DNA from: a virus
Lineage: Duplodnaviria > Heunggongvirae > Uroviricota > Caudoviricetes
Reading direction: 5' to 3' (one strand)
Virus record (IMG/VR): IMGVR_UViG_2537561832_000002
DNA: 4,323 bases
The translations under genes were made by a program, and so were the position numbers. Shown here in pieces: positions 1,878 to 4,323 of the stretch (positions within the stretch are counted from its first letter, which is position 1; each line of letters opens with the position of its first letter). The notes under the pieces are model-generated. The model was not told where the DNA came from. It searched no databases and worked only from the letters and a program-made list of their open reading frames with translations.

Positions 1878-4323
1878 TCAGCTAATCGTGATGCCTGCAG
1901 TGGCTTTCTTCATCACCACAACCAGCAAATCGCTGATACTTGCTGTGGGATACCAGTTATTTACCAGCCATGCTGACACCGAAAACTCCAGTGTCATGTG
2001 ACCGTGACCGGCAGGCATATCAATAACACCACTGTAAATCAGCGTATTATCCAGCGCGGTACGGTTATAAATTTCAGCACCGTTTTTCCGCACTATCAGA
2101 CGGCATGAGGAGTAAATATCAGTATGCTCTCTCTCATGCTTAGCGCCACTGAATGCCACAGCCGGAATAACAATTTGCCGGTCAAACGGCTGATCGTCAT
2201 AAACCCTGACGGTAATGGTCCCTGATGGCCACCGCTCCGGTGCCCGGGAGTCACGGGGGAAAGCTTTGCCCACTGTTTTAACGAGATCGCCTTCAATCTG
2301 GTTCGCGGACAGTTTTCCCAGAACCCGGCAGTTCTCGTTAATCGTGACGTTGTTGAGCGTCCCGGAGTTCGCATTCACGTTACCGCTGATATCGGCATTT
2401 TTCGCCGTCAGCCGCCCGTCCGGTGTCAGGGAAAATGCCGGAGGATTACCGCCGCTGGTAATGGTCGGAGCCGTCAGGCGTTTCAGGAACACGTCGTTCA
2501 TGAATATCTGATCGCCCTGACCAACAAACATCGGCTTTGTGTTGCCATTCGCAGGATTAATCATCGCAATCCGGTCAGCAGCCAGAAGCACCTGACTCTG
2601 CATACCTGCTGGCGTATTCTCAATACCGGCTCCGATACCCGCAATATAAAGGCGTCCGTCCTTCATCTGCTGCAGTTTCACGGCCCACATGCTGTTCAGG
2701 TTATTATTTGTATCAACCTGAACTTTCTGTATCTGCTGGATTGCCGCACTCTGGTCTTCCAGTTTTTTATTGACGGTCTGCGTGATTTCATTGCTGACAT
2801 TCGTAATGGACGTCCTGATTTCAGCCAGGTCCGGCGCAAGCTGACCGTTATCAATCTGCGTCCACAACTCCTGGGCCAGATGTGTTTTCCCGATTTCTCC
2901 TTTGAAAAAATCCAGGTAACCTTCCGCATCATCGCTCGCCCGACCGACGGCCTCCACGAATGCCGATTTGCCAACGGTGTTCACACTGCGGATATAAAAG
3001 TAATAATCATGGCCCGGTTTGATATTGATACTGGCGGCTATCCAGTACAGCCCCGTGCCAAGGTAGCGGGCTGTGGTTTCAACCTGCCTGATATCGGTAA
3101 TCCGCGTTTCCGAGAACCAGAACTCAAACTGTACCGTCGGATCATAAACCGCAAGATGCGGCGTGGCGGTTATCTGAAAATAGCCCGGCGTCAGCTCAAT
3201 CCTCGACGGTGCTGCCGGTGCGGCAATCCGGAACGATACCGACGCCGGATCGCCCTGCTGCCCCCGGGCATTTACCGCCCGGACTGTCAGCCTGTAGTTC
3301 CCCAGCGCCAGTTGCGTGAAGCGGTATGTGGTTTCCGTCGTCCGGGCCGTGCTGACCAGCCGCTCACTGCCGTCGTCCGCTGTTACGGTCAGACGGAGCA
3401 GGAAGCTCACGCCCTTCACCACCTTCGGTGTGTCCCATCGCGCCAGCACCTGATATTCCCCGCTGTCTGCAGTGACTTCTGCGGCCAGGTGCTGCACCGC
3501 TGGCGGCGTGACACCATTCACCGTGCCGCTCTGGTCGCCGTCAAAGTGCGCCCCGTTATCCACGATGGCTTCTTTTTCCGGTACATGCTGCACGGCGGTG
3601 ATGGCATACGTGCCGTCGTCGTTCTCACGGATACTCACACAGCGGAACAGGCGCTGGCGCAACGTCGGCAACTTCAGCCCCCACACGCTGTATTCTGCAA
3701 CGCCGTCAGGAACCCGGCTCACTTTCACCTTCACGCCGTCGGTGACGGACTGAACCTCCACGCTGACCGGATTGCCACTTCCGTCAACCAGGCTTATCAG
3801 CGTGGTACCGGAGGATGGCAGCGTGATTTCACGGTCGAGCGTCAGCGTCCGGGCCTGGCTGCTCACCGCCAGCACACGACCACCGGTGCTGATACCGGCA
3901 TAGTCATCATCGCAGATTTCAATAACATCGCCCGGTACATGGCGAAGCCCTTCGGCACCCACGCTGAAGTCCACGGTCTGCGTTTCCAGCAGCTCCGTTT
4001 TAATCAGCCACAGCCCGGCGCGGTGTGCCTGCCCCCGGCTGGTACAGCCAAAGGCATCCATCTTCGTGACATTACGACCATAACGGGCAATGGCCTGCGT
4101 GTCCTCCACAAGCTCTGTTGCCGTTTCCCAGCCGTTATCCGGGTCAGTCCAGTTCACCTCAACGGCATTATGGCGGTCCTTCAGGGCGCTGAAACTGTAG
4201 CGGAACGGCGCGCCATCATCCGGCATCACCACATTACTGCGGTTATAGGTCCACACCTTATCCGACGGCCGGTCCTGCACGAACGTCAGCGTCTGCCCGT
4301 TCCATACCGGCATACAGCGCATC
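1878..4323 (-). CDS. J: Tail tip host-specificity protein J (central tail fibre), C-terminal ~815 codons; 5' end lies beyond the window
   Basis: Track ORF 1878..4322 (814 aa) is open to the window edge; the leading Met is internal, not the true start. The translation ([22 protein letters not shown]...GYLDFFKG...[31 protein letters not shown]...) matches my recollection of lambda gpJ over most of its length, including the fibronectin-III-like region. Stop codon TGA at 1878-1880 on the minus strand. Confidence 0.95.

Follow-up and report, generated by a model that had tools for sequence, protein, structure and literature searches.

Receptor data have been published for several relatives of the receptor-binding tip described here. 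In the work of Brödel et al. (Nature 2024; PMC11338833), the C-terminus of lambda gpJ was swapped, from residue 964 onward, for the natural E. coli prophage variants 1A2 and A8. The first recipient for these gpJ variants lacked lamB; later recipients lacked both lamB and ompC and received OmpC variants from a plasmid (PMC11338833). When OmpC was supplied to MG1655 cells deleted for lamB and ompC, the lambda/1A2 chimera delivered DNA into them; delivery was efficient only with the OmpC of O157 strain EDL933, and poor with that of K-12 MG1655 (PMC11338833). A8 can use the OmpC of either strain, and the two variants jointly serve 21 of 23 OmpC variants (PMC11338833). Because the graft begins at lambda residue 964, it includes the whole of the 149-residue tip considered below.

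Read by eye from OCR text, the 3' end of A8 resembles the tip of phi330, a phage whose need for OmpC has been established with the Keio ompC knockout and complementation (PMC12502783). Phage 434 is likewise cited as an OmpC user. The native receptor of Phi21 is reported to be LamB, with OmpC gained by a single J mutation and OmpF by more (PMC11336670). Related tips can switch among LamB, OmpC and OmpF through one or few mutations (PMC11336670), and small differences between them can therefore matter.

We have analyzed a J gene that lies in a 4,323-nt stretch of Caudoviricetes DNA (IMG/VR record IMGVR_UViG_2537561832_000002), hereafter called the window. Judged by its sequence, the J tip would be a receptor-binding domain (RBD) of the VT1-Sakai/gpJ-1A2 type that docks onto OmpC, favoring the EDL933 type over that of K-12, and not onto LamB. 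We put the probability of this reading at about 85%.

Methods

Genes were taken from the ORF list of the window and domains from Pfam, and J was compared with lambda J (OR974322) by local alignment. Identities of the tip to phages were obtained using tblastn of its 149 residues against phage records. The gpJ-1A2 DNA came from the Nature 2024 supplement as OCR text with dropped bases, and its 3' end was compared in a frameshift-aware alignment. The recombination crossover in J was located by binned nucleotide identity and runs of informative sites. The AlphaFold2 model of the RBD was built from a hand-trimmed alignment of 16 homologues, the homologue search having returned mostly gene fragments and frameshifted products. 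Structural relatives of the model were identified using Foldseek, and the spacer between lom and the side tail fibre gene was scanned with Rfam.

Gene content of the window

The window contains J, lom and a side tail fibre gene (stf), all three on the minus strand in the ORF list, as are the features located below. The order J, lom, stf is identical in lambda, 434, VT1-Sakai and BP-4795. The 3' part of J (central tail fibre / tip attachment protein J; 1878..4322), recognized from the ORF list, Pfam and the lambda alignment, runs for 814 codons without interruption to its stop (1878-1880). It is open at the window end, the first ~345 codons lying outside, and in the local alignment its residues 1-813 pair with lambda J 346-1131. 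Five Pfam matches, all exceeding curated cut-offs, follow one another along the fragment: Phage-tail_3 (aa 2-153), Ig_J (265-369), Ig_J_second (371-473), Phage_Tail_Tip (527-655) and Ig_GpJ_C (684-814, E 3.8e-37). The domains present, in order, are the hub, two Ig/FNIII domains, the tail-tip fibre and the C-terminal Ig-like RBD.

The lom gene (1211..1810) is intact, and its 199-aa product is an outer-membrane beta-barrel of the Ail/Lom family (Pfam Ail_Lom, E 9e-125). The exact Lom protein occurs in 4805 blocks of a public assembly index and is thus very widespread. Terminator-like hairpins with T-runs lie between J and lom (1840..1859) and after lom (1078-1107), and terminators are annotated at the matching places in phages 21 and 434. 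Of the side tail fibre, the window includes the first 353 residues (1-1059); the start of its gene, at 1059, is intact, and the gene continues beyond position 1. A lambda Stf-like start leads into an Ala/Ser/Glu-rich stretch and then into Gly-X-Y collagen-like repeats that extend over ~103 residues (nt 1-309), within which a 45-nt tandem repeat was seen at 1-123.

The lom-stf junction is a different allele. The spacer (1060-1210, 151 nt), together with the end of lom, is 31-59% identical per bin to lambda, 434, VT1-Sakai, phi330 and BP-4795, while its identity to a contig in assembly GCA_002554485.1 is 99.6%; the Rfam scan of the spacer was empty, with no RNA family match. The best match to the whole window among complete E. 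coli genomes was 95.9%. Contigs that encode the exact Lom protein match the window in part, that of O104:H4 2009EL-2050 at 97.9% over 4323-710 and that of GCA_002554485.1 at 99.6% over 2538-1.

A VT1-Sakai-type distal fibre on a lambda-like base

The first-pass annotation of this DNA held that J is lambda-like until directly after the motif NVTINENC and that its last ~149 residues are diverged. The divergence of the tip was borne out. Nucleotides 1881-2327 encode exactly the last 149 residues of J, ending in AGITIS, and these are 41% identical to lambda J in the local alignment (61/148), as against 92% just upstream and against the identity of more than ~90% that had been set as incompatible with the claim. 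The chance of 61 or fewer matches in 148 is 6e-56 at the 92% rate of the flanking residues and 3e-34 at the 85% found over fragment residues 1-665 as a whole. At 41% identity to lambda J residues ~985-1132, the tip falls outside the lambda LamB-binding RBD. The alignment also placed the break where the annotation had put it.

Its description of the upstream part held in two segments and failed between them. Identity to lambda J is 88-100% per 50-residue block over residues 1-450 and 92% over residues 601-650; over residues ~451-600 it falls to 60% (451-500), 24% (501-550) and 60% (551-600), and a 28-residue insertion relative to lambda is present. This second divergent zone (2523..2972) covers the alpha-helical shaft and upper fibre. 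It corresponds to what Ge and Wang (PMC11101478) name the alpha-helical shaft and the beta-prism top, and in lambda the shaft includes residues 841-861. The longer form is common to phage 21, VT1-Sakai, phi330 and BP-4795, and the shaft in the window thus exceeds that of lambda. Just above the RBD lies a conserved lower beta-prism (central straight fibre; 2328..2522) with ~92% protein identity to lambda, which contains the equivalent of lambda residue 964, the fusion point of the 1A2 and A8 chimeras.

Nucleotide comparisons revealed the origin of this pattern. Between 4323 and ~3200 the window shares 91-99% of its nucleotides with lambda, 21 and 434 and 66-86% with VT1-Sakai; from ~2970 through the RBD and into lom as far as ~1324, most of that gene included, its identity to VT1-Sakai is 95-100%. 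Informative sites are lambda-type at 4245-3203, mixed at 3103-2949 and Sakai-type at 2898-1822. The crossover zone (2898..3203) extends from the second Ig/FNIII domain to the start of the shaft, fragment aa ~374-475. The distal part of J, beginning with the alpha-helical shaft, and lom make up one block of VT1-Sakai type, fused to a lambda-like proximal J. The diverged tip is therefore not an isolated patch, since the whole distal fibre and lom belong to this one block. The natural crossover lies much further upstream than the engineered fusion at lambda 964 (by a distance given as about 500 residues), and the shaft is consequently the long VT1-Sakai type and not that of lambda.

Identity and frequency of the tip allele

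In the tblastn comparison, the tip is 99.3% identical (148/149) to that of VT1-Sakai (Sp15), a value shared by the PPompW prophages and 2G7b, and 98.7% identical to those of JLK-2012, PhiR5_1 and dozens of long-tailed Stx1a/Stx2a phages. The tblastn identity is 63.6% to phage 21, ~61% to BP-4795, 41.8% to lambda and 39% to 434; by alignment of the tips it is 68% to phage 21 and 44% to 434. P-EibA is 100% identical over RBD residues 22-149, which is the whole of its record (128 residues). Of 5426 complete E. coli genomes, 3381 match the RBD DNA, usually more than once (median 2, maximum 9 places per genome), and in O104:H4 outbreak strains the identity is 100%. The tip is one of the commonest J tips in E. 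coli prophages and is already characterized, not new.

Comparison with gpJ-1A2 gave 135 identical residues of 149, with 8 positions on OCR indels and 6 apparent substitutions, so that 14 of the 149 positions of gpJ-1A2 are not directly verifiable in the OCR text. One of the substitutions is an in-frame stop and must therefore be a text error. Five of the six mismatches are attributable to OCR, and R66K is the only one that corresponds to a natural allele, namely that of VT1-Sakai. Within the limits of the OCR-damaged supplement, the sequences identify the tip as the same domain as in gpJ-1A2, and arginine at position 66 in the window versus lysine in 1A2 appears to be the only credible difference.

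Predicted fold and variable loops

The RBD matched PDB sequences 9wca/9wcb (A8 gpJ 713) at E 1e-48 and those of lambda gpJ, 8xcj/8xck, at E 1e-28. Its AlphaFold2 model (pLDDT 79.9) is all-beta, and the top Foldseek matches of the model were 9wcb, 9wca, 8xck and 8xcj (TM 0.81-0.85, E 3e-16 to 3e-14), 9wcb being the open state of A8 gpJ with the OmpC of E. coli EDL933. The predicted fold is that of the lambda gpJ Ig-like receptor-binding domain.

Variation inside this RBD class concentrates at RBD residues 63-70, 108-112 and 119-126. The loop KHEREHTD (RBD aa 63-70; 2118..2141), which holds R66, is the most variable stretch, where 9 members of the class show up to 7 alleles; the forms seen in the class at HE-R-E-H-TD are EREH, ERNH, EREN, ERKN, EKEH, EQDH, GRGD, KGMY and longer ones. 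This loop aligns with the phi330 hairpin E953-S962 (ENFNSNNQQS) and is 5 residues shorter than in A8/phi330; in an AlphaFold3 model, the phi330 hairpin lies inside the OmpC barrel (PMC12502783). The variation of KHEREHTD has the look of diversification at a site that contacts the receptor. The second variable loop, AWLVNNWY (RBD aa 119-126; 1950..1973), aligns with phi330 A1015-P1020 (ANNWTP), a segment predicted by AlphaFold3 to contact the OmpC rim (PMC12502783), and is probably receptor-facing. The first loop of the RBD (RBD aa 25-34; 2226..2255), delimited by translation and alignments, exceeds that of A8/phi330 by 4 residues and has the length seen in lambda.

Receptor assignment

From the divergence of the tip, the first-pass annotation had suggested a receptor other than LamB. 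That suggestion is supported, on other grounds than divergence: the tip is near-identical to gpJ-1A2, which depended on OmpC in PMC11338833, and is on that account probably OmpC-binding. Divergence alone is insufficient for inferring a receptor other than LamB, since Phi21 uses LamB with a tip only ~48% identical to that of lambda (if Phi21 J is that of the phage 21 record). Nor can a receptor be read from similarity of 60-80%, because the tip of phage 21, reportedly a LamB user, is 81% identical to that of phi330, an OmpC user. The 68% identity of the tip to phage 21 was at one point counted in support of OmpC and was dropped, the native receptor of Phi21 being LamB (PMC11336670). A search for published receptor tests on natural phages carrying this tip (2G7b, the PhiR/ECOR13 phages and long-tailed Stx phages) yielded none that was usable. 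Near-identity to 1A2 is thus the sole basis of the proposed receptor assignment.

The precedent of Phi21, natively a LamB phage (PMC11336670) whose tip, taken from the phage 21 record, is ~48% identical to that of lambda and 68% identical to the one in the window, lends some color to the idea that the tip still uses LamB despite its divergence, as lambda and Phi21 do. That idea is nevertheless highly improbable given the behavior of 1A2, whose tip is active in lamB-deleted cells and needs supplied OmpC, and which is reportedly inefficient on MG1655, a strain with LamB and K-12 OmpC (PMC11338833). A narrower departure from the OmpC reading would have R66 shift specificity relative to 1A2, toward a different set of OmpC variants or away from OmpC to some other porin, for instance OmpF. 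The residue lies in the loop richest in alleles, aligned with the hairpin of phi330 that is predicted to enter the barrel, and single J mutations alter the receptor use of Phi21 (PMC11336670); yet lysine to arginine is a conservative change, the other 148 residues are those of VT1-Sakai, and the allele evidently circulates, as the exact RBD DNA is present in O104:H4 genomes and P-EibA is 100% identical across the loop. We regard such a shift as quite unlikely. The more limited proposal that R66 might retune which natural OmpC variants the tip recognizes is conceivable from its position in the loop, though doubtful.

The tip could also be a relic without a role in infection, carried by a defective prophage. 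Many E. coli lambdoid prophages are defective, J of VT1-Sakai is itself annotated as split by mutation, and a genome has a median of 2 and as many as 9 matches to the RBD. In the window, however, the 814 J codons are uninterrupted, lom and the start of stf are intact and the terminators are where they are expected, and we consider a relic unlikely.

Under the preferred reading, in which the tip docks onto OmpC, three copies of J would stand at the tip of the tail fibre, and their variable bottom loops would most probably meet trimeric OmpC on its extracellular side, the contacting loops being those suggested by the alignments. By analogy with lambda and LamB and with A8 and OmpC, binding may spread the three RBDs apart. 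The movement would then be relayed upward through a twist of the beta-prism and a flip of the alpha-helical shaft, as in the lambda-LamB analogy (PMC11101478), after which the tail tip would open and DNA be ejected.

For annotation, J in the window should carry the label OmpC-type, with O157/EDL933 variants preferred, in place of LamB-type. The more general lesson is that a receptor is predicted by near-identity to a tested allele only, and not by divergence from lambda. As a discovery the assignment carries little weight: the receptor was established with an engineered chimera, the structure of a sister allele with OmpC is solved, and nothing observed here demands a new explanation. Were R66 to retune recognition, the loop alleles (EREH, EKEH, ERNH, ERKN, GRGD and others) would amount to a natural specificity code relating prophage tips to OmpC types.

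Comparison with known systems

The RBD of lambda gpJ, solved with LamB (8xcj/8xck; PMC11101478), has a like fold (TM 0.83-0.85 to the model) and a like place at the end of the beta-prism, and its first two loops are equal in length to those of the window. It differs in sequence (41% identity) and in receptor, which is LamB, whereas the 1A2-type tip is LamB-independent and requires OmpC. The tip of A8 gpJ and phi330 (9wca/9wcb) shares the fold, provides the closest solved structure and has OmpC as its receptor. At ~63% identity, and with the first loop of the window 4 residues longer and its hairpin 5 residues shorter, the window carries a different allele from the ENFNSNNQQS type; A8 also uses K-12 OmpC, which 1A2 does not use efficiently. 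Phages 21 (Phi21) and 434 have homologous tips, LamB being reported as the native receptor of the former and OmpC cited as that of the latter. As the closer tip is that of the LamB user and the farther one that of the OmpC user, receptor does not track overall similarity.

VT1-Sakai (Sp15, AP000400) is alike in its tip (99.3%) and in its DNA from shaft to lom (95-100%). Its proximal J DNA is only 66-86% identical to the window, which follows lambda, 21 and 434 there, and the annotation of its J gives two overlapping ORFs (478-3950, "truncated by a mutation"), whereas the ORF in the window is uninterrupted. With gpJ-1A2 the window appears to share the same RBD; apart from R66 versus K66, the difference is that the tip is joined here naturally to a long VT1-Sakai shaft, and in 1A2 was grafted by engineering onto lambda.
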